49,576 nucleotides of DNA from Escherichia phage HK639: sequence record NC_016158.1; one strand, given 5' to 3'. Shown in pieces: positions 1 through 27,185 of the stretch. The notes under the pieces were generated by a model, which was not told the DNA's origin, made no database searches, and saw only the letters and a program-made list of their open reading frames with translations. Position numbers and translations under genes: made by a program. Position 1 is the first letter of the stretch. The number at the start of each line of letters is the position of its first letter.

Positions 1-50
1 ACGCTGTGGTAGCAGAATGGCATTCATCAAAAGCAACTACGGAGTGAGTA

Positions 51-701
51 ATGGCAAAACCGGACTGGGAGGCCATCGAGACGGCGTACCGGGCCGGAGT
101 GATGTCCCTCCGAGAAATAGCGTCACAGCACGGTATCAGTGAAGGCGCTATCCGTAAGCGTGCCAAGCGCGACGACTGGTCGCGTGACCTCAATGCGAAG
201 ATTCAGCAAAAGGCTGATGATCTGGTACGCAAACAGGAGGTACGCAAGCAGGTACGCAACGAAAGCACTTTGACCGAGCGCGTACTGATAGAGGCGACTG
301 CCGAGGTAATTGCCACGGTACGCATGGAGCACCGGGGAGACATCCGCCGGGCTCGTGAATTGACCAACACGCTATTCGATGAACTTGGTGCGCAGTGCGC
401 AGATGTAAGCGCGCTCGAGCAGTTGGGCGACATCATGTTTGATCCCGACGATAAAGGCCGGGACCGGCTCAATGAAATTTATCAGAAAGTGATCAGCCTG
501 CCTTCCCGCGTTAAATCCATGAAAGACCTGAGCGACAGCCTGAAGACGCTGATCGGCCTCGAGCGTGAGGCATACAGCATCGAGAATAAGGCTGAAACGA
601 AAGAGGTCACCCATAACGTCATGCTGGTGCCAACCAGTGACAACGTGGATGACTGGGAGGCGGCAGCGCAGAAACAACAGGACGGGGTGCTCGGTGGATG
701 A
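51..701 (+). CDS. phage terminase small subunit
   Basis: 216-aa ORF with N-terminal HTH-like segment (SLREIASQHGISEGAIRKRAKRDDW); stop overlaps the start of the large terminase; purine-rich RBS before ATG. Confidence 0.7.
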   Translation: MAKPDWEAIETAYRAGVMSLREIASQHGISEGAIRKRAKRDDWSRDLNAKIQQKADDLVRKQEVRKQVRNESTLTERVLIEATAEVIATVRMEHRGDIRRARELTNTLFDELGAQCADVSALEQLGDIMFDPDDKGRDRLNEIYQKVISLPSRVKSMKDLSDSLKTLIGLEREAYSIENKAETKEVTHNVMLVPTSDNVDDWEAAAQKQQDGVLGG

Positions 702-2269
702 ATTACAAAGCTGTATGGAAGCCACTGCCTGGATCTCAGTCCCTGGCGCTGAGCTGCCCGTGTAACGAAATCCTGTTCGAGGGCACTCGCGGACCGGGCA
801 AGACAGCTGCGCAGTTAGCCAGGTTCAGGCGTAATGTCGGCGTAGGTTATGGCTCGTTCTGGCGCGGCGTCATTTTCGACACCGAGTATAAAAACCTTGC
901 CGACATCATCACTCAGTCGAAGCGCATGTTTCGCCTGTTCAACGACGGTGCGCGCTATCTGTCATCTGCGAGCGAATTGCGATGGGTGTGGCCAACGGGC
1001 GAGGAGCTTCTCTTCCGCTTCGGCAAAGAGGCAGACGACTACTGGGATTTCCACGGTCAGGAATTCCCGTTTATCGGCTTTAACGAGCTGACGAAACAGC
1101 AGTCTCCAGAGTTCTATGAAATGATGTTCTCCTGCCGCCGATCATCGTTCAGGCCGGAAAACTACCCGCTGGAGAATGGCAAGTTATTGAGGCCAATCCC
1201 GCTGGAGACGTTCAGCACGACCAACCCGTTCGGCATCGGGCATACCTGGGTGAAGAAGCGCTTCATTGAGCCAGCGCCGCGCGGAACCGTGCAGCGCGAC
1301 CGGCAAATGGTGTTCAACCCTCAGACAGAACGAGAAGAGGAAATCACGCTGACCCGCGTGGCAATCCACGGCTCGTTCAAAGAGAACCCGTACCTCGATC
1401 CGCAGTACATCGCAACGCTGATGGCCATCAAAGACCCGAATCGCCGTAAGGCGTGGGTTGAGGGCTCGTGGGATGTTACCAGCGGCGGACGTTTCGACCA
1501 TCTGTGGAATGCCTCGCATCATGTCATCAAGCCATTCCGCATACCGGATAGCTGGACGGTCGACCGCTCGCATGACTGGGGCGAATCGAAACCGTTTTCC
1601 AACCTCTGGTGGGCACGATCCGACGGAACCGCCGCAGAACTGCCTGATGGCCGCCAGTTCTGCCCGCCTGCTGGGACGCTGATTCTTATTGGCGAGTGGT
1701 ACGGCTGCCCACCGGACGAGCTGAACAAAGGCCTGAATATGTCATCAACAAACGTCGCTAAGGGCGTTGCCTGGGTAGATAAACGACTGGTGGGCGATGA
1801 ACTTGCTGAGCCTGACGAAATCAAGCTTAACGGGGTGACGCAGGGGCAACTGAACATCATGCCTGGAATCTGTAAGAAGGTTACACCGGGCCCGGCTGAC
1901 AGCGCCATTTACAATACAGGCGATGATGAACTCTCCATTGCGCAGAAGATGGAGTCCCAGGGCGTTAAATGGCTTGAGGCAAACAAAAAGCCGGGATCTC
2001 GCGTTAACGGCGCCGCTCTGTTTGCCGATATGCTCGAAGCTGTCAATGAAGGTAAGAAACTGGAATCCGGCATCCCGGAGAAACCTGCATTTTACGTATT
2101 CGACTACTGCCGTGGCTGGATCAGCCGTGTGCCGGTACTCGTGCGCGACAGTAAAAACCCCGACGATGTAGATACCCAACAGGAAGATCACGACTGGGAT
2201 GCTACCCGATATGCCGTTCTGCATTCACCGCCGAAGAGAGTCGGCAAAGTCACCAATCTGAGGCTCTAA
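698..2269 (+). CDS. phage terminase large subunit (ATPase/nuclease)
   Basis: 523 aa; Walker A-like GTRGPGKT near N-terminus; acidic nuclease-like C-terminal half; position after small terminase. Confidence 0.8.
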   Translation: MNYKAVWKPLPGSQSLALSCPCNEILFEGTRGPGKTAAQLARFRRNVGVGYGSFWRGVIFDTEYKNLADIITQSKRMFRLFNDGARYLSSASELRWVWPTGEELLFRFGKEADDYWDFHGQEFPFIGFNELTKQQSPEFYEMMFSCRRSSFRPENYPLENGKLLRPIPLETFSTTNPFGIGHTWVKKRFIEPAPRGTVQRDRQMVFNPQTEREEEITLTRVAIHGSFKENPYLDPQYIATLMAIKDPNRRKAWVEGSWDVTSGGRFDHLWNASHHVIKPFRIPDSWTVDRSHDWGESKPFSNLWWARSDGTAAELPDGRQFCPPAGTLILIGEWYGCPPDELNKGLNMSSTNVAKGVAWVDKRLVGDELAEPDEIKLNGVTQGQLNIMPGICKKVTPGPADSAIYNTGDDELSIAQKMESQGVKWLEANKKPGSRVNGAALFADMLEAVNEGKKLESGIPEKPAFYVFDYCRGWISRVPVLVRDSKNPDDVDTQQEDHDWDATRYAVLHSPPKRVGKVTNLRL

Positions 2270-2273
2270 TTCC

Positions 2274-3674
2274 ATGCCTGACATTTCAACACCCAATCTG
2301 GACTATGGGAACATGGTCGAGGCGTGGGATATCAACGATGCCCTGATGGGCGGCACGCTCTATATGCGACAGCTGGGCGAGCAATATCTACCGCGCTGGC
2401 CGAAAGAAGACAAAGAGGACTACAAAAAACGCCTCGCCGTGGCCACGCTTCTGCCAGCCTACGAAGAGACCATTAAGCAAAACATCGGGCGTGTATTTGC
2501 TGAGCCCATTAAGCTTGCCGAGAATGTGCCGGATCAGCTGCGAGAGTATGCGAAAAACTTCGACCTTGAGGGGACGCGCCTGGACGTATGGGCGCAGGCA
2601 TTCTTCGGTCTGGCGATGCAGTATGGCCTCTCCCACGCGCTGGTGGATTATCCCAGGGTGGACACCGAAAAGGTGAAAACCAAAGCGGAAGAGAAAGCTA
2701 CTGGCGCGCGCCCATACGTCACCATGCTCAATCCCCGGCAGGTGATCGGATGGAAGTCGAAAATGGTAGACGGCAAAGTGGTGCTGACCGAGCTGCGTAT
2801 CAAAGAGGTAGTTATCGAGGACGGCGACGACTTCGGGCAGACAAAGGTCGAGCAAATTCGTTATCTGACACCTGGAATGGTGCAAATCTACCGCAAGTCG
2901 AAAGGTATCGATGGGGCGGCGAACTGGGAGAAGTTCGACGAATGGACAACATCTCGTAAGGACATAACACTGGTGACGCTCTACACCAAGCGCACCGGGT
3001 TTATGTGTGGTTCACCTCCACTGCTCAATATGGCTCTGCTGAACATCAAGCACTGGCAGAGTCAAAGCGAGCAGGACAACATTCTGCATGTCGCCAGGGT
3101 GCCGTTGCTCACGGTGTTCGGTTTGGAAGAGGGGCAAGAGCTGATAATTGGCTCGTCTTCAGCTACGTCGTTCACTGATCGGCAAAAGCAGGGTCTGGAA
3201 TACGTCGAGCATACAGGCTCCTCCATCGGTGCTGGTAAAGAGTCGCTGGCAGAACTTGTGGAGCAGATGCGCCAGGCTGGTGCGAAGCTGCTGCGTACGG
3301 AAAACACCTCTACCAAATCGGTAGACCAGACCTCCGAAGAGAAAATGCAGGAGCAGTCACCGCTCTACACCATGGCTACCAGCCTTGAAGATGCGATCGA
3401 CAACATTCTGCAAATCATGGCCGAGTACATCGGCGAGAAAGATGGTGGCAACGTTGATGTTCGCACCGAGCTGGATGTTGAGTCGAAAGAATTCAACCCG
3501 CCTGCTGCACTGGCTATTCAGTCCCTGCGCCAGGGCGGTGACCTTCGCCGTATCGATGCGATTAAAGCCCTGCAAAAACTCAACCTGATTGATGCCGATG
3601 CGGATCCTGATACGGTGCTGAGCGAGTTGCTGGCCGAGTCTGCGTCGCTGAGTGAACCACCGCCGGGGGTGTGA
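2274..3674 (+). CDS. portal protein
   Basis: 466 aa, directly downstream of large terminase and upstream of head morphogenesis gene; size and position typical of portal. Confidence 0.6.
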   Translation: MPDISTPNLDYGNMVEAWDINDALMGGTLYMRQLGEQYLPRWPKEDKEDYKKRLAVATLLPAYEETIKQNIGRVFAEPIKLAENVPDQLREYAKNFDLEGTRLDVWAQAFFGLAMQYGLSHALVDYPRVDTEKVKTKAEEKATGARPYVTMLNPRQVIGWKSKMVDGKVVLTELRIKEVVIEDGDDFGQTKVEQIRYLTPGMVQIYRKSKGIDGAANWEKFDEWTTSRKDITLVTLYTKRTGFMCGSPPLLNMALLNIKHWQSQSEQDNILHVARVPLLTVFGLEEGQELIIGSSSATSFTDRQKQGLEYVEHTGSSIGAGKESLAELVEQMRQAGAKLLRTENTSTKSVDQTSEEKMQEQSPLYTMATSLEDAIDNILQIMAEYIGEKDGGNVDVRTELDVESKEFNPPAALAIQSLRQGGDLRRIDAIKALQKLNLIDADADPDTVLSELLAESASLSEPPPGV

Positions 3675-3675
3675 A

Positions 3676-4782
3676 ATGGCCCGCTCCGTTAACGACCGCC
3701 TGCAGGACGAAACGATAGCGCACGGCCTGTATGTAAACCGCTACGGTACTGGCGTCGCTCGTCGGATGGTGGCGCTGCTCAGCAAGATGGATGCCGACCT
3801 GGCTGCCAAACTGCTGGTGCTGCTGGATGGTAAGCGTGCCGATACCTACAGCGCTCGCCGCTTGGCTTCGCTGCTGGCTGGTGTGCGCGTACTGAATCAA
3901 CAGGCCTATGAACCGGTGAATGCTGCGCTGGCACGTGAACTGACGCGCTACGTTGAGTATGAGGTCGGTTATCAGTTTGACCTTTTCAGCAACATCATTC
4001 CGAAGCAGATCCTCAGGCATGTACCGCTCCAGAGCATCGCGCCTGAGCAGGTTTACGCCTCAGCAGTGGCTCAGCCATTCCAGGGGCGCTTGCTGAAGGA
4101 GTGGGGCCAGAAGCTTGAAACGGATCGGCTGGATAAAATCACCAACGCTGTGCGCACCGGTTTCCTTCAGGGTGAAACGGTAGATCAGATCGTTAAACGC
4201 GTTGCCGGAACGCAGAAACTCAATCGTGAAGATGGGGTGATTAACGCCTCACGTCGCGACCTGGCGGTGGTGGCCCGCACGGCTGTAAATCACATGGCCG
4301 CTACTGCGCGTCAGGAGTTCGCACAGGGCAACAGCGATATCGTAAAGGCCAAACAGTGGTCCTCAACGCTGGACACTCATACCAGCCAGTGGTGCATTAT
4401 CCGCGACCGAAAGCTTTACACGCTCGACGGCAAGCCGCTGGGGCATGAAATTCCGTATCTGCGCGGACCCGGCAAAATTCATTTCTGCTGTCGCTCCGGT
4501 GAAATCCTGATTACCAAATCGTGGGAAGAGATGCAGATAGCCTCTGGCGAGCTGAGCATCGCCACGCGCGCCTCAATGGACGGACAGGTGCCATCGCATA
4601 CCAGCTATGCCGAATGGCTCGTCAGGCAACCGTACGCACGGCAGGAGCAGGTGCTGGGCGTTACTCGCGCGCGGATGCTGCGTGACGGCAAAATCACGGT
4701 ACCAGAGATGTTCAACGATGCCGGGGAGTTCCTTACCTTGGACGAACTGCGCCGCGTGGATGCGTCGGCGTTTGAGGGGTAA
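3676..4782 (+). CDS. head morphogenesis protein (Mu F / SPP1 gp7-like)
   Basis: ORF 3652..4782; start taken at ATG 3676 just after portal stop; position between portal and scaffold. Confidence 0.55.
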   Translation: MARSVNDRLQDETIAHGLYVNRYGTGVARRMVALLSKMDADLAAKLLVLLDGKRADTYSARRLASLLAGVRVLNQQAYEPVNAALARELTRYVEYEVGYQFDLFSNIIPKQILRHVPLQSIAPEQVYASAVAQPFQGRLLKEWGQKLETDRLDKITNAVRTGFLQGETVDQIVKRVAGTQKLNREDGVINASRRDLAVVARTAVNHMAATARQEFAQGNSDIVKAKQWSSTLDTHTSQWCIIRDRKLYTLDGKPLGHEIPYLRGPGKIHFCCRSGEILITKSWEEMQIASGELSIATRASMDGQVPSHTSYAEWLVRQPYARQEQVLGVTRARMLRDGKITVPEMFNDAGEFLTLDELRRVDASAFEG

Positions 4783-4784
4783 TC

Positions 4785-4901
4785 ATGCCTCAGATAATGG
4801 TTGGCTTGGTCTCGATTGCATTGGGGCTGGCGGCAATAGTCATATCCTCGCGAAGTATCTACGAAATGTGGCGCTTCATGAGGGAGCAAAAGAACAAATA
4901 G
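4785..4901 (+). CDS. small hydrophobic peptide (38 aa), putative membrane protein
   Basis: MPQIMVGLVSIALGLAAIVISS...; RBS GAGGGG upstream; followed immediately by an intrinsic terminator; below the ORF-track size cutoff. Confidence 0.3.
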   Translation: MPQIMVGLVSIALGLAAIVISSRSIYEMWRFMREQKNK

Positions 4902-4926
4902 GTCGCTTCGGCGGCCTTTTTTATGC
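4902..4926 (+). terminator. rho-independent terminator
   Basis: GGTCGC-TTCG-GCGGCC hairpin followed by TTTTTTAT. Confidence 0.6.
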
Positions 4927-5003
4927 CTGCCGTTGAGCGGATGCGACGCGGTGACCGGGTCGGATGACCTATTACCAATGGCCGGAAGGCTGGAGCAAAA
5001 ACA

Positions 5004-5756
5004 ATGAAACTGAAACTTGATGCTAACGGAAATGTGGTCGTTGAAAACGGTATGCCTGTGTACATCCATGATGACGGCAAAGAGATCCCGTTCGACGCAG
5101 CCGCAGCGATGACCAAAATCACCTCCCTGAACGGTGAAGCTAAAACTCACCGTGAAGCGAAGGAGGCGGCGGAAGCCAGTCTCGCGAAATTCTCTGGCAT
5201 CACCGACCCGGCCAAGGCGCTCGAAGCCCTGGAGATGATGACCAAAATCGACCAGAAAAAACTGATCGATGCTGGTGCCGTTGACCAGGTAAAGGCGGAG
5301 ATCACCAAAGTTTTCCAACAGCAACTCGAAGAGGCGAACAGCAAGACCCAGCAACTGGAAACTCAACTCTACGACGAGATGATCGGCGGCCGCTTCGGTG
5401 GCTCCAAATTCATTTCAGAGAAGATGGCGATCCCGGCTGAGTTCGTGCGTTCGTACTTCGGGCAGAACTTCAAAATCGAAGACGGCAAGGTCGTGGCCTT
5501 CGACGGTCAGGGCAATAAGGTGTTCTCTCGCACCAAGCCTGGCGAGCTGGCTAGCTTCGACGAAGCGCTGGAGTCACTGGTCGAGTCGCATCCGCAGAAA
5601 GATTACATCCTCAAAGCGTCCGGTAACAGCGGCGGCGGTTCTCACCAGTCGCAGCACCAGGCCGGGCAAAAAACCATGAAACGCGATGCGTTTGATGCAT
5701 TACCTCCAGCAGAGCAACAGGCTGTGATTGGCGGCGGCACAAGCATCGTTGATTAA
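5004..5756 (+). CDS. scaffolding protein
   Basis: 250 aa, Ala/Glu/Lys-rich coiled-coil-like composition, directly upstream of the major capsid gene. Confidence 0.6.
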   Translation: MKLKLDANGNVVVENGMPVYIHDDGKEIPFDAAAAMTKITSLNGEAKTHREAKEAAEASLAKFSGITDPAKALEALEMMTKIDQKKLIDAGAVDQVKAEITKVFQQQLEEANSKTQQLETQLYDEMIGGRFGGSKFISEKMAIPAEFVRSYFGQNFKIEDGKVVAFDGQGNKVFSRTKPGELASFDEALESLVESHPQKDYILKASGNSGGGSHQSQHQAGQKTMKRDAFDALPPAEQQAVIGGGTSIVD

Positions 5757-5773
5757 TCGAAAGGAATAAATAC

Positions 5774-6910
5774 ATGTCTAATACTTTGACTGGCCTGATC
5801 CCGACCATTTATACGGCGCTTAACCGCGTTTCACGTGAGCAGGTAGGTTTTATCCCGGCAGTGGCTCGTAACGCTAAGGCCGATGCCGCGGCCAAAGACC
5901 AAACCGTGACCGCACCGGTAGCACCAAAAACCACCACCGTTGATATCACTCCGGCGGCAACCGCGCCAAACGACGGTGATCAGAACATTGGTACCGTGGA
6001 TGTCAAAATCACCAAATCAAAAATGGCTCCGGTCAAATGGAACGGTGAAGAACAGTTGGCGATGGGGCCATCAGGTAACTACGACGTTATCCTTGCCGAT
6101 CAGTTTTCTCAGGCCTTCCGCGCGCTGAGCAACGAAATGGACGCAGACCTGGCTGCGCTGTTCTACAAATCTTCCCGTGCAGTTGGTTCACCAAAAGAGA
6201 CGCCATTCAGCATTAAAGACGATCTGTCTGATGCAGCGCTGGCGCGTCAGATTTTAGTGGATAACGGTGCACCGACTACCGACATGCGCATGGTGCTGGG
6301 CGGCGAAGCGATGGCCTCAATTCGCGGAAAACAGTCGGTTCTGTTCAAAGCGAACGAAGCAGGTACCGATCAGCTTCTGCGTGAAGGTATTATTGGCCGC
6401 GTGATGGGCTTTAACCTTCACGAATCCGCCAACATCAAGCGCACAGCGAAAAGTACGGCGGCGGGCTATACGGTCAACGGCGCGAAGCAGGAAGGCGATA
6501 TCATCATCGCTATCTCCACAGGTACCGGTGGTATCGCAGCAGGCACTGCGGTTAAGTTCGATGGCGACTTTAACCAGTATCTGGTTGTGGCCTCTACGGC
6601 CTCAAGCATCACTATCGCAGCACCGGGACTGCGCCAGGATCTGGCAGACCAGACAGCTATTACCGTTGTGAGCGAATTCACACCAAACATGGCATTCGAC
6701 CGCAATGCTTTCCTGCTGGCGTGCCGCACCCCGGCAATGCCAAAAGGCGGAGACACCGCCGACGATGTGATGAATGTTACCGACCCGGTGTCAGGCATCA
6801 CCTTCCAGATCGCGCTCTATCGCCAGTACCGTCAGGTGCGTTACGAGGTTGGCGTGGCATGGGGTGTGGCATCTGTTCAGCCTGAACACTCCACCATCAT
6901 CATGGGTTAA
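5774..6910 (+). CDS. major capsid protein
   Basis: 378 aa; RBS AAAGGA; follows scaffold gene; strong terminal codon usage consistent with highly expressed structural gene. Confidence 0.7.
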   Translation: MSNTLTGLIPTIYTALNRVSREQVGFIPAVARNAKADAAAKDQTVTAPVAPKTTTVDITPAATAPNDGDQNIGTVDVKITKSKMAPVKWNGEEQLAMGPSGNYDVILADQFSQAFRALSNEMDADLAALFYKSSRAVGSPKETPFSIKDDLSDAALARQILVDNGAPTTDMRMVLGGEAMASIRGKQSVLFKANEAGTDQLLREGIIGRVMGFNLHESANIKRTAKSTAAGYTVNGAKQEGDIIIAISTGTGGIAAGTAVKFDGDFNQYLVVASTASSITIAAPGLRQDLADQTAITVVSEFTPNMAFDRNAFLLACRTPAMPKGGDTADDVMNVTDPVSGITFQIALYRQYRQVRYEVGVAWGVASVQPEHSTIIMG

Positions 6911-19171: not shown

Positions 19172-22100
19172 ATGGAAGCGATCACTGGTGCAAAGGGTGG
19201 CAGCCAGAAGCAGCACACACCTGTAGAACAGCCCGATTCGGCGCAGTCAATGGCGCGCTGCCGCATGCTGCTGGCGCTCGGGGAGGGGGAGTTTGCTGGT
19301 GGCCTGGATGCGACCCGGATATTCCTGGACGGTACGCCGTTGGGAAACCCCGACGGAACGATGAATTTTGAAAATGTGTCATGGGATTTCCGGCCTGGCA
19401 CACAGACCCAGACACCAATACCGGGATTCCCTGCAGTCGAGAATGAAACTACGGTTGGCGTATCGCTGACAAAGGCCACACCATGGACGCGCGCGCTGAG
19501 TAATACCCAGATTGACGCGGTTCTCGTTCGTATTGGTATACCTGGATTGCAGCAGCAGGAAAACGACGGAGACATTGTCGGAACTACTGTCACATATCAC
19601 ATCGACATTGCGGTTGATGGCGGGGCATACCAGACAATGCTAACCAAAACGGTTACTGAAAAACTCAGTTCGCTGTATGAGCTGACCCATCGCATTAATC
19701 TTCCGAAAGCCAGTACGGGCTGGCAGATTCGCGTGGTACGCGACACTGACGACAGCACCAGCCAGATGTTGCAGAATAAAACGCAGGTACAGGCAATCAC
19801 TGAGGTGATTGATGCGCGCCTGCGCTATCCCCATACGGCGCTGCTGTATGTGTCGTTCAACGCCAAATCGTTCAACAATATCCCGAAGATTTCCTGTAAA
19901 CCGAAGGGGCGTATTATCCGCATCCCTTCGAATTACGATCCGATAGCCCGAACCTATAGCGGCACATGGGACGGGACATTTAAGTGGGGCTGGACGAATA
20001 ACCCAGCGTGGATCTGGTTCGATGTGCTCACTGAGCCGCGTTTCGGACTTGGCCGCCGTGTGACGCCAGAAATGCTCGATAAATGGGAGCTTTATCGCAT
20101 AGCGCAGCGCTGTGATCAGCTTGTACCAGATGGAAAAGGCGGTAGCGGTACAGAGCCGCGCTTCATGTTTGACGTGTACATTCAGGCGCAGGCCGACGCC
20201 TGGCAGGTGATCAAGGATATCGCCGCAGGCTTTAACGGCATGACGTTCTGGGGCAACAACATGTTCAATGTTGTCTCTGACATGCCGGCGGACACGTCGA
20301 AGCTGCAAATCCTTACCCGCGCTTCGGTGGTGGGCAAGCCGGTTTACTCGAGCGGCAGTGAAAAGACCCGCTTCTCCAGCGCGCTGATTAACTTCAGCGA
20401 CCCTGACAATCACTATCAGGACCGCACGACAGCGGTGATGTTCCCGGATCTGGTTAAGCAGTTCAAGTTTAAGCAGACGCAGATCACCGCAATCGGCTGT
20501 ACGCGCGAGAGCGAAGCGCAGCGCCGTGGCGGGTGGGCGGTGTATTCCAACTCACTCGACAGGATGATTACGCTACAGACCGGGCTTGATGGCTATGTCT
20601 ACGTGCCGGGTACCGTATTTGCATTTGCCGACGAACGCCTTTCAGGGCGTGTTTATGGTGGGCGCATCACCGAGTACAATTCCGGGATTAAGGCAGTGAC
20701 CACTGACCGCGGTACCAGCGCGGTGGCTGGCGATACACTGATGATTCGCACGCAGGGCGGTGCCGTTGAAAGCAGAGTGATTCAGGCCGTAAACGGCACG
20801 CAGCTGGTGGTTGCCACGCCTTTCACGGCAGAGCCGTTACCAAACGCTGTATTCGTCATCGATGCCGGGCAGTTGCGCCTGCAATACTTCCGCGTTACGA
20901 ACCTGAGATTTGATGATGAAGAAAACACCTTCACAATCACCGGGGCTGAGTATAACGCATCAAAATATGATGCGGTCGATAACAATGCCCGCCTGGATGC
21001 GCCGCCAGTCAGCCTGTTACCGACTGGTGTTGTAAGCCAGCCTGCCAACATCGCGGTAGCGAGCTATGACGCAGTACGCCAGGGGCAGCGAGTGGCCACC
21101 TTGACTGCATCATGGGATGCGCCGGTCGACAAGAACGGCAAACCACAGGCAGATGTCATAGCCTATCGCGTGCAGTGGAAGCGCGGCGACAATGAGTGGG
21201 TTAACGTGCCGGATACAGGGCTGCGCAATATCGAAGTTCCTGGCATCTTCGATGGTGATTATCTGGTACGTGTACGCGCCATCAACTCAGGAGGTGCGTC
21301 TAGCCTCTGGACAACGTCTGCTCTTACACACCTAAAGGGGCGCGCTGGTGACGTTCCAAAACCTGTAGGGCTAACAGCATCTGAAGATGTCGTTTTTGGG
21401 ATCAATATCACTTGGGGATTCCCTGCTGATACCTCAGACACATTAAGCACAGAGCTGCAATACAGCGTTACGGCTGACGGTTCAAATCCTATTTTGTTGG
21501 CGTCTGTACCTTATCCTCTAAAACTTTATCAGCAGATGGGCCTTAAGGCCGGTCAGGAATTCTGGTACCGCGCACAGCTGGTTGACCGAACCGGTAACGA
21601 ATCAGGATACACAGAATGGGTTCGTGGGCAGGCAAGTATAGATGTTTCTGATGTCTCCAGTGTGATTTTGGAGGACATGAAGGAATCTCAGACGTTCAAA
21701 GACCTGATCGAGAGCGCAGTGGACAGCAATGCAAAAATTGCTGGCATGGCTGATGATATCCTGCAGGCGAACAATCAGCTCGAACAGCAGGCGCTGGATA
21801 TTCAGGAAAATTCTGATGCTCTGGCGCAAGCTGCGGTGAAGATCGACGAAATGTCTGTCTCCATGGACGGCATGACGGGAGGCGTGAAGAACTCGGCCAT
21901 AGCTATCATCCAGGGCAACCTCGCACAGGTGGCAGCGCGTAAAACACTGACTGCGTCGGTCGCCGGTAACAGCGCGCAGCTTGACCGAATTGATGAAGTG
22001 ATCGTTAACGAGAAGGAGGCAACGGCGCGCGCTCTGCTGAGCCTGCAGACGGACGTTAACGGCAACAAGGCATCCATCAACAGCCTCAATCAGACGTTCT

Positions 22101-22636
22101 CGGATTACCAGCAGGCTATGGCCACGCAGGTAAACAGCATCACGGCGACCGTCAATGGCCACACTTCTGCGATCACCACCAACGCGCAGGCCATTGCCAA
22201 CGTCAACGGCGACCTGAAGGCGATGTACAACATCAAGGTTGGTGTCTCCAGCAACGGGCAGTATTACGCCGCGGGGATGGGGATCGGCGTGGAGAATACG
22301 CCATCCGGCATGCAGTCGCAGGTTATCTTCCTGGCTGATCGCTTCGCAGTCACCACGGCGGCCGGAAACAGCGTGGCTTTGCCATTCGTGATCCAGAACG
22401 GGCAGACATTCATCCGGGCCAGCTTCATTCAGGACGGCACCATTGACAACGCCAAAATCGGCAACTATATCCAGTCGAATAATTATGTGGCTGGATCTGC
22501 AGGCTGGAAGCTTGATAAGGGAGGGACGTTCGAAATTAACGGTGTGGCCGGGGGCGGGAGGATGCTGATATCCAGCACTCTCATTCGCATCTACGACAGC
22601 AACAACGTGCTGCGCGTCAGAATGGGGTTATGGTAA
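19172..22636 (+). CDS. J: tail tip / host specificity protein J
   Basis: 1154 aa; position after I; lambda J-like length and architecture with fibronectin-like repeats and C-terminal receptor-binding region. Confidence 0.85.
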   Translation: MEAITGAKGGSQKQHTPVEQPDSAQSMARCRMLLALGEGEFAGGLDATRIFLDGTPLGNPDGTMNFENVSWDFRPGTQTQTPIPGFPAVENETTVGVSLTKATPWTRALSNTQIDAVLVRIGIPGLQQQENDGDIVGTTVTYHIDIAVDGGAYQTMLTKTVTEKLSSLYELTHRINLPKASTGWQIRVVRDTDDSTSQMLQNKTQVQAITEVIDARLRYPHTALLYVSFNAKSFNNIPKISCKPKGRIIRIPSNYDPIARTYSGTWDGTFKWGWTNNPAWIWFDVLTEPRFGLGRRVTPEMLDKWELYRIAQRCDQLVPDGKGGSGTEPRFMFDVYIQAQADAWQVIKDIAAGFNGMTFWGNNMFNVVSDMPADTSKLQILTRASVVGKPVYSSGSEKTRFSSALINFSDPDNHYQDRTTAVMFPDLVKQFKFKQTQITAIGCTRESEAQRRGGWAVYSNSLDRMITLQTGLDGYVYVPGTVFAFADERLSGRVYGGRITEYNSGIKAVTTDRGTSAVAGDTLMIRTQGGAVESRVIQAVNGTQLVVATPFTAEPLPNAVFVIDAGQLRLQYFRVTNLRFDDEENTFTITGAEYNASKYDAVDNNARLDAPPVSLLPTGVVSQPANIAVASYDAVRQGQRVATLTASWDAPVDKNGKPQADVIAYRVQWKRGDNEWVNVPDTGLRNIEVPGIFDGDYLVRVRAINSGGASSLWTTSALTHLKGRAGDVPKPVGLTASEDVVFGINITWGFPADTSDTLSTELQYSVTADGSNPILLASVPYPLKLYQQMGLKAGQEFWYRAQLVDRTGNESGYTEWVRGQASIDVSDVSSVILEDMKESQTFKDLIESAVDSNAKIAGMADDILQANNQLEQQALDIQENSDALAQAAVKIDEMSVSMDGMTGGVKNSAIAIIQGNLAQVAARKTLTASVAGNSAQLDRIDEVIVNEKEATARALLSLQTDVNGNKASINSLNQTFSDYQQAMATQVNSITATVNGHTSAITTNAQAIANVNGDLKAMYNIKVGVSSNGQYYAAGMGIGVENTPSGMQSQVIFLADRFAVTTAAGNSVALPFVIQNGQTFIRASFIQDGTIDNAKIGNYIQSNNYVAGSAGWKLDKGGTFEINGVAGGGRMLISSTLIRIYDSNNVLRVRMGLW

Positions 22637-22932
22637 TGCCACAGGGTTTGCAGTGCTGGGACAGTGCAGGGCGGGTTGCAGTGGATTTAAGCGATTACGC
22701 GATCCGTTACATGGGCAGCGCAACGGTTTCGCTTGCTTCAGGAGAGACGTCAAAAAATGTCGCTTTTTCTGGCGCAACACAGGACGGGACGTTTGTCACA
22801 ATCGTTTCAACTGGAGTGACTGTAAACGAGTATTTTTGCCGCGCTTATAACGGCGGCTTTACTCTCTACTATCTCCCCACGGGTGGAAGTGCAGCAATCA
22901 CTCTCAATGTTGAGGTTTATAACTTTCAATGA
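22636..22932 (+). CDS. hypothetical tail-region protein with SAG motif
   Basis: ORF 22630..22932; ATG 22636 overlaps J stop (TAATG); motif QCWDSAGRVAVDL shared with next gene. Confidence 0.45.
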   Translation: MPQGLQCWDSAGRVAVDLSDYAIRYMGSATVSLASGETSKNVAFSGATQDGTFVTIVSTGVTVNEYFCRAYNGGFTLYYLPTGGSAAITLNVEVYNFQ

Positions 22933-23570
22933 GCGGATTCGAAGTTTACAACAGCGCCGGGAAACTGCTGGTGGACTCGCAAAACAGGTCGACCATGTTT
23001 TACGATCAGCGCGCGCTGGGGGCCGTAACCGACAAAGGCTTTTACCGTGTTGATAGCCCGTTTGGTGATGGCAGCACACTCGGCGGCACTCCTCAGGCAT
23101 TCTGGAATGACGGGCGCTTAAGGTGGCTGCAGCTGGGTACGAACAAATACGGTTTTCCTGGTGCTGATATGCTTGAAGATAATGCTGGAAGCATGATCCG
23201 AACAGCGCGAAATATTGGCATCCAGAGCGGCTATCTCGATGTGTTTGATAGCGCCGGCAGCCTTATCTGGAGTGCAGCATCAGCCTCTAAGATGCCGAGA
23301 GTTGTTGGGTTCTTTGACGTACCAGCGAACTATGACCTGCAGAACAATACCTTTTCAGTCAGTTTAAGCTTCAACCCCTGGATTTTGATAAACAACTGCC
23401 CGGGGAATCTCAGCGATGATGGCACGGTTGTCGGGTATTCAGGAGTGGTGCTCAAATGGACTGGCTCACAGCTGCAGGGCAGATATATATCAAAAAATCA
23501 GCGCAACTGGAGCCAGACGTTTCAGGGACGGGGCTTAAGAATCCCCATCGCTCAGTTTGTTGGAATTTGA
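22929..23570 (+). CDS. hypothetical tail-region protein with repeated SAG motif
   Basis: 213 aa; EVYNSAGKLLVDS and VFDSAGSLIWSA repeats. Confidence 0.5.
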   Translation: MSGFEVYNSAGKLLVDSQNRSTMFYDQRALGAVTDKGFYRVDSPFGDGSTLGGTPQAFWNDGRLRWLQLGTNKYGFPGADMLEDNAGSMIRTARNIGIQSGYLDVFDSAGSLIWSAASASKMPRVVGFFDVPANYDLQNNTFSVSLSFNPWILINNCPGNLSDDGTVVGYSGVVLKWTGSQLQGRYISKNQRNWSQTFQGRGLRIPIAQFVGI

Positions 23571-23897
23571 CACGGGAGGAACGCGTGGATAATGAGTCGC
23601 GATCATATCTTGTTTCACGCCCTTTGCTGAATTAAAGCGATAAACCACATCCAGCTTTTCCGTTTTTTTATAGCAAATATTACTTAACCGTTTATTAATA
23701 TGGCGGCTGAATATTCCGTTGCTACTGTCTGAAATAATATCCACCTCTCTGGTGGCGCAGTCGATATTTACATGAATATCACCACCCAGCGATAAACGAG
23801 CTGCATCAACCGGGTAATCCATCTGGAATGCGTTATCTGTGTGTGTGTTCGTACATCCAGCCACCAGCAAAAGCGCTGCAGCAAATAAAAGTTTCAT
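23535..23897 (-). CDS. lipoprotein (moron), candidate superinfection-exclusion protein
   Basis: 120 aa; MKLLFAAALLLVAGC lipobox signal; opposite strand to all flanking tail genes; AT-richer; RBS AGGAATG. Confidence 0.55.
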   Translation of the reverse strand: MKLLFAAALLLVAGCTNTHTDNAFQMDYPVDAARLSLGGDIHVNIDCATREVDIISDSSNGIFSRHINKRLSNICYKKTEKLDVVYRFNSAKGVKQDMIATHYPRVPPVSNSNKLSDGDS

Positions 23898-24023
23898 TTC
23901 AACATTCCTGTTTATGCGGGAACTTCCATTTTATTTGAGTTTAAAAAATAGTCAGATTGATATGAGCGATCAATTTTACACGATTGATCGCTTTTAACGA
24001 TCGTTATTATCGTGAGGTAGTTC

Positions 24024-25277
24024 ATGCTTTATAACACCGGCACCATCGCAATTAACGGAAATACCGCAACCGGCACCGGCACAAACTGGACAGCTCCCGC
24101 CAGCCAGGTTCGCTCTGGCCAGACAATTATCGTCATGTCTAACCCGGTGCAGCTGTTCCAGATTTCATCCGTGAACAGCGCCACGTCAATGACGGTTACG
24201 CCTGCCGCTTCCCCGGCGCTGAGCGGCCAGAAGTATGGAATTCTTGTGTCGGACATTATCTCAGTCGACGGCCTGGCACAGGCCATGTCGCAGCTCATCA
24301 AAGAGTACGACGAGAACATTGGCGCGTGGGAGACGTTCGCTACTACCTCAGCAAACCAGACCATCACCGTAACCATCAACGGCACCCCTGTAACGATCCC
24401 CGGCATCGGCAAACTAGCTCTGAAAGGGAGTAACGGTGCGCTGGCTGTTGCTGACGGCGGAACCGGAGCAACTAAGGCAGAAGACGCTCGCACAAACCTC
24501 GGTTTGGGAAGTAGCGCCACGAGGAACGCATACAGCTCCACCGGGGATATGCTTTCAGTAGGTGATTTTGGATTAGGATCGACAAGTGCTCCCGGACTTA
24601 ATGATGCTAATTTGGGACGTCAGACAGCTTTCTCTGCGGCTGGCGGTGCTGGTGCAGTTAACTTTTTCGATGCGTATTCTCCGTTGCTATCAATGGTAAG
24701 AACCACTTCAACAGCGGTACAGATGCAGATAACAGCAGCTGGTAAATCTGCAGTTAGAGGGTGTAATGCGGGGAACTGGACACCGTGGTACGAACTTTAT
24801 TCAACTCAAAATACAACGAAATCCAGCGATGGAACCCTTAAGGCTGCGTCTCCGGTTGCCCGTATCGTAGCGAGCCAGGAAGCCTGCCAGCGCGCCGATA
24901 TAGCGGAGGATGGCTTCTCCTGGTGCGGCTGTGGGACGGCGAACACTGAGGCGGAGGGAATAACCATTTCTCGCCTCGAGGTGGGCGTTTACGTGCTGGC
25001 AGGTTCGGCAGGCTTGGCGTCCGAGGGATGGCAGCTACTGCCACCAATGGACCCCGGCGGCATGGGAGAGCTGGGAGTGGTTGAGGCAGAGCAAACCGAT
25101 AGCGGCGAGCTGACAATCCGTCTTTTCAAGCGAAAATATATCCTGAGCGATGAAGGTGAGGTCATCAAAACCAAAGGTGAACCGATTGACGTCCCGGCGA
25201 ACAGCTGGATCGATGTTCGTCTGGATATGCCAGCGGATAGCATCTGGAACACCAAAGTTTCCGGTTCTTCTCTCTAA
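24024..25277 (+). CDS. side tail fibre protein
   Basis: 417 aa; conserved phage tail-fibre N-terminal region followed by Gly/Ala/Thr/Ser-rich repeats; RBS GAGGT. Confidence 0.7.
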   Translation: MLYNTGTIAINGNTATGTGTNWTAPASQVRSGQTIIVMSNPVQLFQISSVNSATSMTVTPAASPALSGQKYGILVSDIISVDGLAQAMSQLIKEYDENIGAWETFATTSANQTITVTINGTPVTIPGIGKLALKGSNGALAVADGGTGATKAEDARTNLGLGSSATRNAYSSTGDMLSVGDFGLGSTSAPGLNDANLGRQTAFSAAGGAGAVNFFDAYSPLLSMVRTTSTAVQMQITAAGKSAVRGCNAGNWTPWYELYSTQNTTKSSDGTLKAASPVARIVASQEACQRADIAEDGFSWCGCGTANTEAEGITISRLEVGVYVLAGSAGLASEGWQLLPPMDPGGMGELGVVEAEQTDSGELTIRLFKRKYILSDEGEVIKTKGEPIDVPANSWIDVRLDMPADSIWNTKVSGSSL

Positions 25278-25391
25278 CTCCAGTGACAACCTGCCGAAAT
25301 TCAGCCTTAAAAATTAATAGGCGAACCCAAATAGATCTACACCTCCTTTAATAGTACTGTATGTATAAACAGTGCTAAAGAGGTGCAGAAC

Positions 25392-25781
25392 ATGGGATTC
25401 CCATCTCCAGCAGCAGACTATGTTGAAGATCGCATATCGCTCGACAAACGGCTTATCGCGCATCCGGCAGCCACGTACATGATGATAGCGGGCTCTACAT
25501 ACCTGCGAGCTGGCATAATGAAGGGCGCAATGCTTATCGTCGACTCGTCGCTGACACCAAAAGACGGTTCTCTTCTGGTGTGCGCTATAGACGGTGAGTT
25601 CAGGATTATGCGTTACAGGACGCATCCGCAGCCTTGTCTGGAAAACCCTGAAAATGGAAGGAGGGAGTCGTTACCGTTGAAAGACGATGTGTCGGATACA
25701 TCGCGGCCGGTGTTTGGGGTGATCACCTACAGCATCAACGATGCGCGTTCTGGTGAGTTCGACGACTGCCCGGTGATGTAA
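25392..25781 (+). CDS. UmuD'-like protein (S24 LexA/UmuD fold, begins at position equivalent to UmuD cleavage site)
   Basis: [29 protein letters not shown] resembles E. coli UmuD residues from Gly25 ([28 protein letters not shown]); C-terminal VFGVITY resembles VFGVVIHV; GDSM and VKKL catalytic motifs not conserved (GSTY, IMRY). Confidence 0.65.
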   Translation: [129 protein letters not shown]

Positions 25782-26021: not shown

Positions 26022-27185
26022 TTACGCCAGTTTCAAGCCAGCCTGATTTTCTCCTTGTGTCGTATTTGTGTCATGGTTGCCAAAAATGGCATCAATTTTC
26101 CGTGCGTGTTCGCTTAAGTGGTTCGGTGCCAGGTGAGCGTATCGACGTACCATTTCGATGGACTCCCAGCCGCCCATTTCTTGCAGAACTGACAACGGAA
26201 CGCCGGACTGAATTAACCAGCTCGCCCAGGTATGCCGGAGGTCATGAAAACGGAAGTCTTCTATACCCGCTCTTTCCAGTCCAATGCGCCAGGCGACATT
26301 GTCATCCACTCGCATTTTGCGGACAGCCGGAGTGACGGTTTTATCCGGGCGCGTTGATGGCTTCGTGTGAACGAATACCCACCTGGAACTTTTCCCGATC
26401 TGATCCCTTAACACCCTGCATGCGGTATCATTCAGAGCCACGCCGATAGCCTTGCCCGCCTTCGCGTTCTCCGGATTTACCCATGCAACCTTTCTCTGCA
26501 TATCGACCTGCTGCCACTCCAGATCAATGATGTTGGAGCGGCGCAGGCCGGTTGCCAGTGCAAATATCACCACCGGCTTTATCGACTCCGGCATGCAGGA
26601 GATAAGCCGTTCTGCCTCGTCCCTGGTCAGCCATCGGATGCGTTTGCTGATCGGCTTTTTCGTTTTTATAACCGGGGCCGTTTTAATCCAGCCCCAGTCA
26701 TTAGCCGCAGCCTTGAACAGAGATCGCATGAAAGAAAGGTGCTGACTCTTTGTGGCCTGGCTTACCGGTTTCTCAACATACGGAGGCGGTTCCTTCCCCC
26801 GGCGTATAGCCGCGTCCCTGCGCGACTCCCAGACCTGAATATGCTTACGGTTGACCATCTTCGAAACAGCCTCATGAACCTGATCAGCTGTGATGGTTGA
26901 AATATCCCGGCCGGAGAAATGCCGCAGGAAATATTCGATTTTGGTCTTATCGTCATCGAGTGACCGCTTATGCTCCTTCTCACGGAGCCACCTGATGCAA
27001 CATTCCTCAAACGTCCTCGTCGGTAGTTCCCCAATTTTATCCACCCGCCACGCTTCAGCCTTCAGCTTGTCGTGCAGCTCCTGCGCTTGTTTCTTGTCCC
27101 CCGTACCAAGAGATCGTCTAATTCTTTTCCCTGACGGCGTAACGAAATGACAGTGCCAGACGCCGCCTCTGAGGGTGATTGACAT
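26022..27185 (-). CDS. int: tyrosine integrase
   Basis: 387 aa; C-terminal catalytic signature [39 protein letters not shown] (R..H..R..Y). Confidence 0.9.

Follow-up and report, generated by a model that had tools for sequence, protein, structure and literature searches.

A hairpin-headed protein pair encoded directly after J in Escherichia phage HK639 as a probable receptor-binding module

Loci encoding receptor-binding proteins (RBPs) beside the gene of the tail tip protein J are already a known kind of phage locus: they have been described downstream of gpJ (Maffei 2021), in phage IsaakIselin, in phage DEV, in models of pyocins and in a receptor-prediction preprint (10.64898/2026.04.02.716166). 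The terminal receptor of IsaakIselin is YncD, now named PqqU (PMC8594841); both IsaakIselin and JohannLBurckhardt need YncD/PqqU (PMC8594841, Table S5), and the Klebsiella phages KLB19 and KLB26 depend on it as well (PMC13412088). AlphaFold2-multimer models place a dimer of RBP-1 and RBP-2 on the extracellular face of PqqU and the protein SIP-1, a look-alike of the TonB C-terminal domain, on the periplasmic one (PMC12124388). The gp56 trimer of DEV carries a single gp54 and a single gp55 in an AlphaFold3 model (interface predicted template modelling score, ipTM, 0.8) and in low-resolution cryo-electron microscopy (cryo-EM); gp54, where suppressor mutations map, is a component of the virion (PMC12892993). 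The pyocin proteins PyoF11 and PyoF12 are essential, are found in the particles and are predicted to sit on the C-terminus of the J-like fibre (preprint 10.64898/2026.01.28.702463). Here we analyze such a locus in Escherichia phage HK639 (NC_016158.1), a temperate lambdoid phage whose complete 49,576-bp genome is referred to below as the window: two small genes directly after J, p1 (HK639_24) and p2 (HK639_25), and a reverse-strand gene encoding a lipoprotein (Table 1).

Our analysis suggests, with a probability that we put at about 0.75, that p1 and p2 form a two-subunit receptor-binding module on the tip of J, which would bind an outer-membrane protein of the host, most likely PqqU, as the last and irreversible step. 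p1 matches phrog_7961 over its full length (1.4e-34) and is 35% identical to IsaakIselin RBP-2 (QXV80561, E value 4e-16). p2 matches phrog_4524, also over its full length (2e-82), and is 49% identical to IsaakIselin RBP-1 (QXV80560) over residues 1-212 of 213 (E 2e-70). In the databases, where p2 is exactly HK639_25 (YP_004934055.1) and a form of p1 with 100 amino acids (aa) is exactly ADO67708.1 of the protein collection, all names of the two proteins are "hypothetical protein". Neither NCBIfam nor the copy of Pfam-A that was searched, which is without PF28254, contained a family for either protein; all 109 homologues of p2 carry PF28254.1 as a precomputed assignment. Searches of the PDB by sequence and by Foldseek gave no significant match for either protein, and for this reason we claim no relation to the solved LptD-binding RBP.

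Homologues of the pair occur in 57 and 49 phage records. Among viral models, Foldseek matched 17 proteins with two domains to p2; they are 204-555 aa long (mostly 218-307 aa) and come from phages of Pseudomonas, Xanthomonas, Achromobacter and Acinetobacter and from uncultured phages, for example to a 220-aa protein of Pseudomonas phage phCDa (E 2e-7, TM score 0.48). p1 matched small proteins and the N-terminal domains of fibres and RBPs, and some matches were common to the p1 and p2 searches. An exhaustive profile search with p1 yielded 148 clusters, nearly all of them stand-alone proteins of about 90-105 aa; long multi-repeat proteins in the same search (for example P0248, with FG-GAP-like repeats) were judged to be spurious β-core matches and not taken as relatives. 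The first-pass annotation had proposed, as a possibility, accessory fibre or receptor-modifying proteins. The evidence points instead to terminal RBPs, the side tail fibre and the exclusion lipoprotein being encoded separately; p2 is probably the main receptor binder of the pair and p1 its small subunit or adaptor.

Both open reading frames (ORFs) exist as initially described. The genes J, p1 and p2 are translationally coupled: the ATG of p1 at 22636 overlaps the J stop codon (TAATG), and the ATG of p2 overlaps the p1 stop codon (ATGA). From the other candidate ATG, at 22630, the 100-aa form of p1 would result; because GGGG is situated 8 nt upstream of 22636 and the N-termini of the homologues read MAQGLQ, MSGLQ or MPGLQ, the 98-aa form is the likely product. 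The resulting arrangement, coupled genes of about 100 and 220 aa directly after J, has nearly the same dimensions in HK639 (98 and 213 aa) and in DEV (99 and 223 aa). The lipoprotein gene is read from the opposite strand, and its 3' end overlaps that of p2 by 36 nt. In 80 of 80 related IMG/VR loci p1, p2 and the lipoprotein are kept together, with J upstream in 79 of them, and the side fibre in these loci varies freely, with identities from 25 to 95%, against a conserved pair.

As to the receptor, all five carriers of the pair that we found with an experimentally typed receptor (IsaakIselin, JohannLBurckhardt, IME347, KLB19 and KLB26) use YncD/PqqU. Receptor classes at this locus have been delimited by identity above 30% and coverage above 99% (preprint 10.64898/2026.04.02.716166), and p2 falls within the class by its alignment to QXV80560; it is 44-48% identical to its counterparts in Bas11 and IME347. 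Going by these sequence relationships, the odds somewhat favour the TonB-dependent pyrroloquinoline quinone (PQQ) transporter YncD/PqqU as the receptor of HK639.

The lipoprotein is 33% identical to IsaakIselin SIP-1 (QXV80559, E 7e-15) and has a signal peptide with the lipobox LVAG|C. Its top profile matches in the PDB are three TonB C-terminal domains (7zc8_B, E 0.1; range 0.1-1.6), the NCBIfam match to TonB is weak (E 0.029), and the protein carries the signature YPxxAxxxxxxGxV. These TonB-like matches at least favour a TonB-dependent transporter as the receptor. Two cysteines, C47 and C75, are invariant among the homologues and therefore suggest a periplasmic disulfide. We regard the lipoprotein as a candidate superinfection-exclusion factor that would act on the periplasmic side of the receptor. 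The exclusion proteins of the lambdoid clade have a lipobox (L-x-G-C), and the homologues from Drexlerviridae have a plain signal peptide ending in ...NAMA. Sigma-70-like sites in the region are not more numerous than in shuffled sequences; the promoter match listed in Table 1 is weak evidence.

The two proteins had been noted for a short shared motif, and its three copies are indeed present at the positions claimed: QCWDSAGRVAVDL at residues 6-18 of p1, and EVYNSAGKLLVDS and VFDSAGSLIWSA at residues 5-17 and 105-116 of p2. The letters SAG, which had been taken as the conserved feature, did not hold up: "SA" varies among homologues, and what is conserved is a hairpin of the form G...[D/N]xxG. 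The pattern common to the copies is G-φ-x-φ-aromatic-[D/N]-x-x-G-x-φ. Of its positions, the first G, the aromatic residue, D/N and the G of the turn are invariant or nearly so among the aligned family members, and the hydrophobic pair is conserved. Invariant positions are G, L, Q, C, W, G, V, D and L for copy 1 in the p1 family; M1, G3 and N8, with G11 near-invariant, for copy 2 in the p2 family; and G101, V105 and G110 for copy 3. The pattern [VCILMA][WYF][DN]xxGx[LIVM] has five matches in the six-frame translation of the whole window, three of which fall within these 313 residues.

The motif proved significant at the profile level. BLASTP of p1 against p2 left the motif unaligned (E 21), and hhalign with shallow alignments of close homologues only gave a weak match between the two proteins; the signal became clear only after homologues from Drexlerviridae, Cronobacter and Acinetobacter had been added. 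With these diverse family alignments the two top matches of p1 in p2 are exactly the two p2 motif sites: the p1 N-terminus matches the p2 N-terminus with P 1e-4 to 6.5e-4 and the region around residue 104 with P 0.0019 to 3.7e-3. The score for p1 and p2 is 27.4, compared with 12.6±2.1 for 200 column shuffles, none of which reaches 27.4; for the N-terminal and C-terminal halves of p2 at the same element it is 19.3 compared with 11.6±2.4 (two of 200 shuffles reach the score). An independent family, phrog_2427, has matches in residues 1-48 of p1 (E 1.3e-8) as well as in residues 102-177 of p2 (E 4.7e-4).

The AlphaFold models are confident overall (p2, 85 for pLDDT, the predicted local distance difference test, and 0.79 for pTM, the predicted template modelling score; p1, pLDDT 84), and all three copies show two strands with the same spacing: residues 8-10 and 16-19 in p1, and 5-7 and 13-16 as well as 104-106 and 112-115 in p2. 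The hairpins are the least confident parts of the models (pLDDT 56-75 for the p1 copy, 63-66 and 66-67 for the p2 copies). In the models each copy is a β-hairpin heading one of three β-domains of about 100 residues, namely p1, the N-domain of p2 and the C-domain of p2. Since each copy starts a β-domain, p2 is a two-domain protein and the pair comprises three hairpin-headed domains.

The same plan is found in T1, which uses FhuA, and in DEV, which uses LptD: a J-like protein ending in a hairpin, a protein of about 100 aa starting with one, and a protein of about 225 aa with hairpins at the N-terminus and near residue 110. In T1 J ends in ...TISVRDASGRLRVQIG, the small protein has MAYGISTWDANG, and the large protein has MSYGAFIDVNG and, internally, GMAIWDASGKL; in DEV gp56 ends in ...TIKVFDQAGKLRVHIG, gp55 has MSYGFRFYDANG and gp54 has the internal GMQVFDADG. 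A hidden Markov model (HMM) of the hairpin with 18 columns, trained only on the HK639/IsaakIselin family, was used to scan 14,088 six-frame residues of the T1 and DEV loci. Its top three matches are the N-terminus of DEV gp55 (E 1e-5), the middle of gp54 and the middle of the T1 large subunit, and the top nine also include both J C-termini and the N-terminus of the T1 small subunit. Comparisons between classes with hhalign yielded P values of 1e-5 to 1e-3. Cross-matches were also seen at the level of PHROGs: DEV gp55 matches phrog_7961 (7.7e-4) and phrog_2427 (3.5e-5), and the p1 homologue of phage Presley matches phrog_4047 (4.7e-6). The match of the p1 family to DEV gp55 (hhalign P 1.3e-5) is remote, covering 33 columns at the N-terminus only; the p2 profile compared with DEV gp54 gave P 0.067.

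The layout recurs in metagenomic data. Of the distinct IMG/VR modules, 82 were followed by a sufficient length of sequence downstream: 61 of these consist of a small and then a large gene and nine of a single gene of 280-400 aa, so that about 70 of 82 share the layout. In the 61 two-gene modules the strict motif is present at the N-terminus of 42 small proteins and within 31 large proteins (residues 85-140), compared with 5 of 1068 control ORF N-termini. In one protein of 313 aa, P0256, the small and the large subunit are naturally fused, with hairpin-headed domains at residues 1, about 106 and about 200; on its metagenomic contig (4075-5942) it stands directly after a 307-aa fibre ending in ...VIKVYDSGGTLRVKIGDLSA (...VIKVYDSGGTLRVKIG). 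Rtp44 (311 aa) has three degenerate G-I-x-[IV] starts at residues of about 1, 113 and 210, and the hairpin HMM gave no significant match to the Rtp44 and Oekolampad RBPs.

A fourth hairpin-like motif is found at the C-terminus of J itself, where the tail follows the pattern φ-x-φ-Y-D-x-x-[G/N]-x-L-R-V-x-φ-G. The J genes of HK97, phi80 and HK75 are 85-90% identical to that of HK639 at the DNA level up to position 22543 of the window and unrelated afterwards; because the identity stops there, the last approximately 30 residues of J are part of the exchangeable module. C-termini of a similar kind were seen in 575 phage records, and a scan of IMG/VR with a DNA pattern for the J-tail hairpin placed 120 of 120 sites at most 26 codons from a stop codon. 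The tail protein of the Acinetobacter podophage Presley ends in ...LITVYDDNNVLRVRMGLW, compared with ...LIRIYDSNNVLRVRMGLW in HK639 J, and only the last approximately 25 residues are common to both. The last 11 residues of the Presley protein are identical to those of HK639 J, and homologues of p1 and p2 follow it. The suggestion of a small family of repeats borne on the tail tip can accordingly be kept as regards the three hairpin-headed domains and the homologous pairs published on the C-terminal tips of J-like fibres; it was mistaken about the conserved letters and missed the hairpin of J.

Judged from these sequences, neither the morphotype of the phage nor the family of the host confines the module: pairs behind J-like proteins occur in lambdoid, HK97-like, Drexlerviridae, Schitoviridae and Saclayvirus phages. 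The best megablast match of positions 22400-23900 in the phage collection is LMessi (94.9% identical). Homologues are common in Enterobacter prophages, and the full module is rare in complete E. coli genomes, where three of 5,426 cover at least 80% of the query. Very large tail proteins precede the pair in the N4-like podovirus Presley (26-4675) and in the 102-kb Acinetobacter Saclayvirus CP14 (1-3145). In two 65-kb phages, Pantoea phage TacPo2 (2690-3639) and Escherichia phage PJNS034 (2714-3666), no J-like gene was seen beside the pair within the stretch examined; in TacPo2 the pair comes after a cluster of 11 tRNA genes.

Our analysis shows homology and synteny, the repeat itself, hairpins in the models of single chains, and a layout that recurs with other classes of receptor. 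As for the mechanism, p1 and p2 would sit non-covalently on the C-terminal tip of trimeric J, and p2, aided by p1, would contact the extracellular face of PqqU as the final irreversible step. This location in the virion and the stoichiometry are modelled on DEV gp56/55/54, on PyoF11/12 and on the published IsaakIselin models. In a lysogen or an infected cell the lipoprotein, probably expressed from its own promoter, would block the same receptor from the periplasm as a mimic of the TonB C-terminal domain and thus be the cognate superinfection-exclusion factor.

The hairpins may dock on the three hairpin-ending C-termini of trimeric J, which we consider to have slightly less than an even chance of being right. 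Docking is suggested by the fact that the hairpin is the sole feature kept while the receptor changes, that the matching tail of J moves with the pair, that the three hairpin-headed domains equal the J chains in number, and that the hairpins are poorly determined in single-chain models. A broader and more tentative version is that the hairpin is a universal plug, three hairpin-headed domains of about 100 residues (one plus two, or three fused) each pairing with one J C-terminus. If this were true, a pseudo-threefold adaptor would give a threefold fibre one asymmetric face for receptor binding, which would explain the mounting of a monomeric or heterodimeric binder on a trimeric fibre; the families binding PqqU, FhuA and LptD would share an ancestral three-domain scaffold and a common docking rule, and this rule would travel with the last approximately 30 residues of J across siphoviruses, podoviruses and probably myovirus-like phages.

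Several points weigh against the module as we see it. The receptor of HK639 was not reported in the literature searched; a search by name for the closest phages (LMessi, CharmingMan and others) gave nothing relevant. The RBPs of phages proven to use YncD are 59-74% identical among themselves but share only 44-48% identity with p2, and p1 and the lipoprotein are 27-36% identical to their counterparts there. Given these lower identities a shift to another TonB-dependent transporter is possible, and as the HK639 proteins form their own clade relative to the proven YncD binders, we keep our estimate for PqqU at the level given above. The TonB likeness of the lipoprotein consists of marginal scores (E 0.1 and 0.029) and a published Foldseek statement on SIP-1. 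The sequence similarity of p1 and p2 is demonstrated only for the first approximately 30 residues of each domain, and Foldseek cross-matches between p1-like and p2-like proteins are weak. The in situ structure of T1, the cryo-EM of DEV, the structure of the F7 pyocin and the LptDE-RBP paper neither resolve nor describe the attachment of the pair to J. Co-variation of the J hairpin with that of the small subunit, seen as a nominal excess of identity between J hairpins and those of their own small subunits (105 compared with 90.1±4.3, permutation p 0.0004), is confounded by close relatives and was not counted.

Alternatively, p1 and p2 could still be a receptor-binding pair and the hairpin no more than a relic of domain duplication, retained for folding or for dimerisation of p1 with p2 without any binding to J. 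The position of the hairpin always at the start of a domain, the stress that the published IsaakIselin model lays on dimerisation of RBP-1 and RBP-2, and the commonness of the [D/N]xxG tight turn as a structural solution are all compatible with this. A mere relic would, however, have to account for the hairpin being the only element conserved across the PqqU, FhuA and LptD classes, the rest of the domains having diverged beyond recognition, for the same pattern at a J C-terminus that is transferred together with the pair, for the constant number of three hairpin-headed domains irrespective of whether one or two genes encode them, and for the lowest confidence falling on the hairpins in otherwise confident single-chain models. 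We consider it reasonable but less likely than docking.

Two further explanations deny that the pair binds a receptor at all. Small genes adjacent to fibre genes often encode chaperones, and p1 and p2 lie between J and the side tail fibre gene (24024-25277), so that they might be assembly chaperones or adaptors of this fibre like Tfa of lambda. Chaperone genes usually follow the fibre gene, whereas p1 and p2 precede it; in Drexlerviridae several genes separate the lateral fibre gene from the locus, where the pair lies against J together with the exclusion gene; the side fibre diverges where the pair is conserved; and the homologous or analogous DEV gp54 and PyoF11/12 are virion components, which makes the chaperone role very improbable. 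The region after J is also the classical site of lambdoid morons, and with both genes annotated as hypothetical one could suppose lysogenic-conversion genes for receptor-modifying or exclusion proteins of the Lom or Cor type, with a motif shared by chance. This is the least credible of the explanations: p1 and p2 are translationally coupled to J, have no evident signal peptide or membrane segment, and also occur in families of phages that are strictly lytic; profile comparison makes the motif significant, and the gene of the exclusion type is a separate lipoprotein gene on the opposite strand. A two-subunit receptor-binding module on J is our preferred reading.

Table 1. Features of the J-p1-p2-lipoprotein locus and its surroundings in the HK639 window.
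Feature	Position	Strand	Basis
J, central tail fibre/tip attachment protein, 1154 aa	19172..22636	+	Pfam Phage_Tail_Tip 7.5e-50, FNIII-A_GpJ 6.2e-45, Phage-tail_3
Putative module-specific J tail, last ~30 aa (...GGGRMLISSTLIRIYDSNNVLRVRMGLW), with fourth hairpin-like motif IRIYDSNNVLRVRMG	22544..22636	+	DNA identity break at 22543; J-tail comparisons
p1 (HK639_24), 98 aa	22636..22932	+	ORF; phrog_7961; homologue of IsaakIselin RBP-2
Hairpin copy 1, GLQCWDSAGRVAVDL, p1 N-terminus	22645..22689	+	Family alignment and AlphaFold model
p2 (HK639_25), 213 aa, predicted two-domain large subunit	22929..23570	+	ORF; phrog_4524; homologue of IsaakIselin RBP-1
Hairpin copy 2, SGFEVYNSAGKLLVDS, N-terminus of p2 first domain	22932..22979	+	Family alignment and AlphaFold model
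Hairpin copy 3, SGYLDVFDSAGSLIWSA, start of p2 second domain	23226..23276	+	Family alignment and AlphaFold model
Lipoprotein, 120 aa, SIP-1 homologue	23535..23897	-	Lipobox LVAG|C; phrog_25729
Sigma-70-like promoter match 5' of lipoprotein gene	23928..23955	-	9/12 consensus; weak
Side tail fibre, 417 aa	24024-25277		phrog_1591

Some other features of the region were observed. A coiled-coil-like segment of J (21720-22240, residues ~850-1023) has a weak match to Pfam Filament; AlphaFold3 predictions for the HK639 central fibre's C-terminal region are included in a 2026 preprint on the F7 pyocin, in a figure on fold-switching from coiled coil to β-prism. A 97-aa ORF on the reverse strand inside p1 and p2 (22807-23100) has no family evidence and, located within conserved coding sequence of the plus strand, is probably spurious. 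Behind the side fibre there are a 132-aa ORF (25383-25781), which by eye resembles S24 peptidases or UmuD, and an integrase-like ORF (26022-27185). In the close relative LLS (stretch 4096-6639) the same J-p1-p2-lipoprotein block is followed by an invertible side-fibre segment with a Fin invertase.

What is new here is an unannotated member of the module from a lambdoid phage that is temperate; its genes are oriented differently, and its exclusion factor is a lipoprotein. The literature searched contained no description of a hairpin or three-domain rule shared across receptor classes, which the 2026 preprint calls "unrelated"; we consider this rule a modest new lead and not a demonstrated mechanism. 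A function and a testable receptor (PqqU/YncD) can now be proposed for three HK639 genes, which are still annotated as hypothetical, as are hundreds of copies in prophages of Enterobacter, Escherichia, Kluyvera and their relatives. The receptor module of lytic T1-like phages is also present in temperate lambdoid phages, where the exclusion gene would protect lysogens. The hairpin and the boundary in J at 22543/22544 suggest a cut-and-paste point for retargeting phages.

Phage T5 has the monomeric pb5 at the tip of its trimeric central fibre and a lipoprotein, Llp, that inactivates FhuA from the periplasm. HK639 resembles it in logic only, pb5 being a single protein of 640 aa with no sequence or fold relation to p1 or p2. 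The F-pyocin proteins PyoF11 and PyoF12 are, like p1 and p2, two small proteins encoded directly after a J-like fibre; the likeness is one of description, and they differ in their reported folds, which resemble the fibre tips of R-pyocins and Pam1, and in their target, presumably lipopolysaccharide or another surface structure. Rtp44/Rtp45 and the Oekolampad RBP, which use LptD, also combine a monomeric receptor binder beside J with a periplasmic exclusion lipoprotein (PMC12685063). The Rtp44 RBP is about as long as p1 and p2 together and has the three G-I-x-[IV] starts, but it is a single polypeptide with a much more degenerate motif, and its J ends in ...ITVNLPNGGRVVVGTF; comparison of p2 with the PDB by Foldseek, expected to include the LptD-RBP structures, gave no significant match.

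T1 has the same gene order as HK639, similar sizes (101 aa and 229 aa after J gp33), the three hairpin positions and a small reverse-strand lipoprotein. The p1 profile matches the N-terminus of its small protein (P 8.5e-5) and the internal hairpin of its large protein (P 3.6e-5), whereas the T1 proteins belong to PHROGs 557 and 425, the receptor is FhuA, and the 75-aa exclusion lipoprotein is Cor-like and not TonB-like. In DEV, gp56-gp55-gp54 correspond to J-p1-p2: a J-like trimer with a hairpin tail, stop codons that overlap the next start codon, an adaptor of 99 aa and a binder of 223 aa, hairpins in the same three places and cross-matching p1 and gp55 families. HK639 would work in the same way, with one small and one large subunit on a trimer. 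DEV differs in being a podovirus with LptD as receptor, a fibre beside the tail plug and no reported exclusion lipoprotein, and p2 has no detectable homology to gp54 beyond the hairpin regions.

IsaakIselin (Bas10) is T1-like, and its three genes make up a single operon that is encoded on the strand opposite to J and converges with it, whereas HK639 is a temperate lambdoid phage of a separate clade in which p1 and p2 are co-directional with J and coupled to it, the exclusion gene alone being reversed; this gene encodes a lipoprotein in HK639, unlike its counterparts in Drexlerviridae. In both phages, three homologous proteins of matching sizes (about 100, 215 and 110-120 aa) are encoded at a locus that abuts J, and J has a tail of the form ...YDxNxVLRVRMGL[WF].

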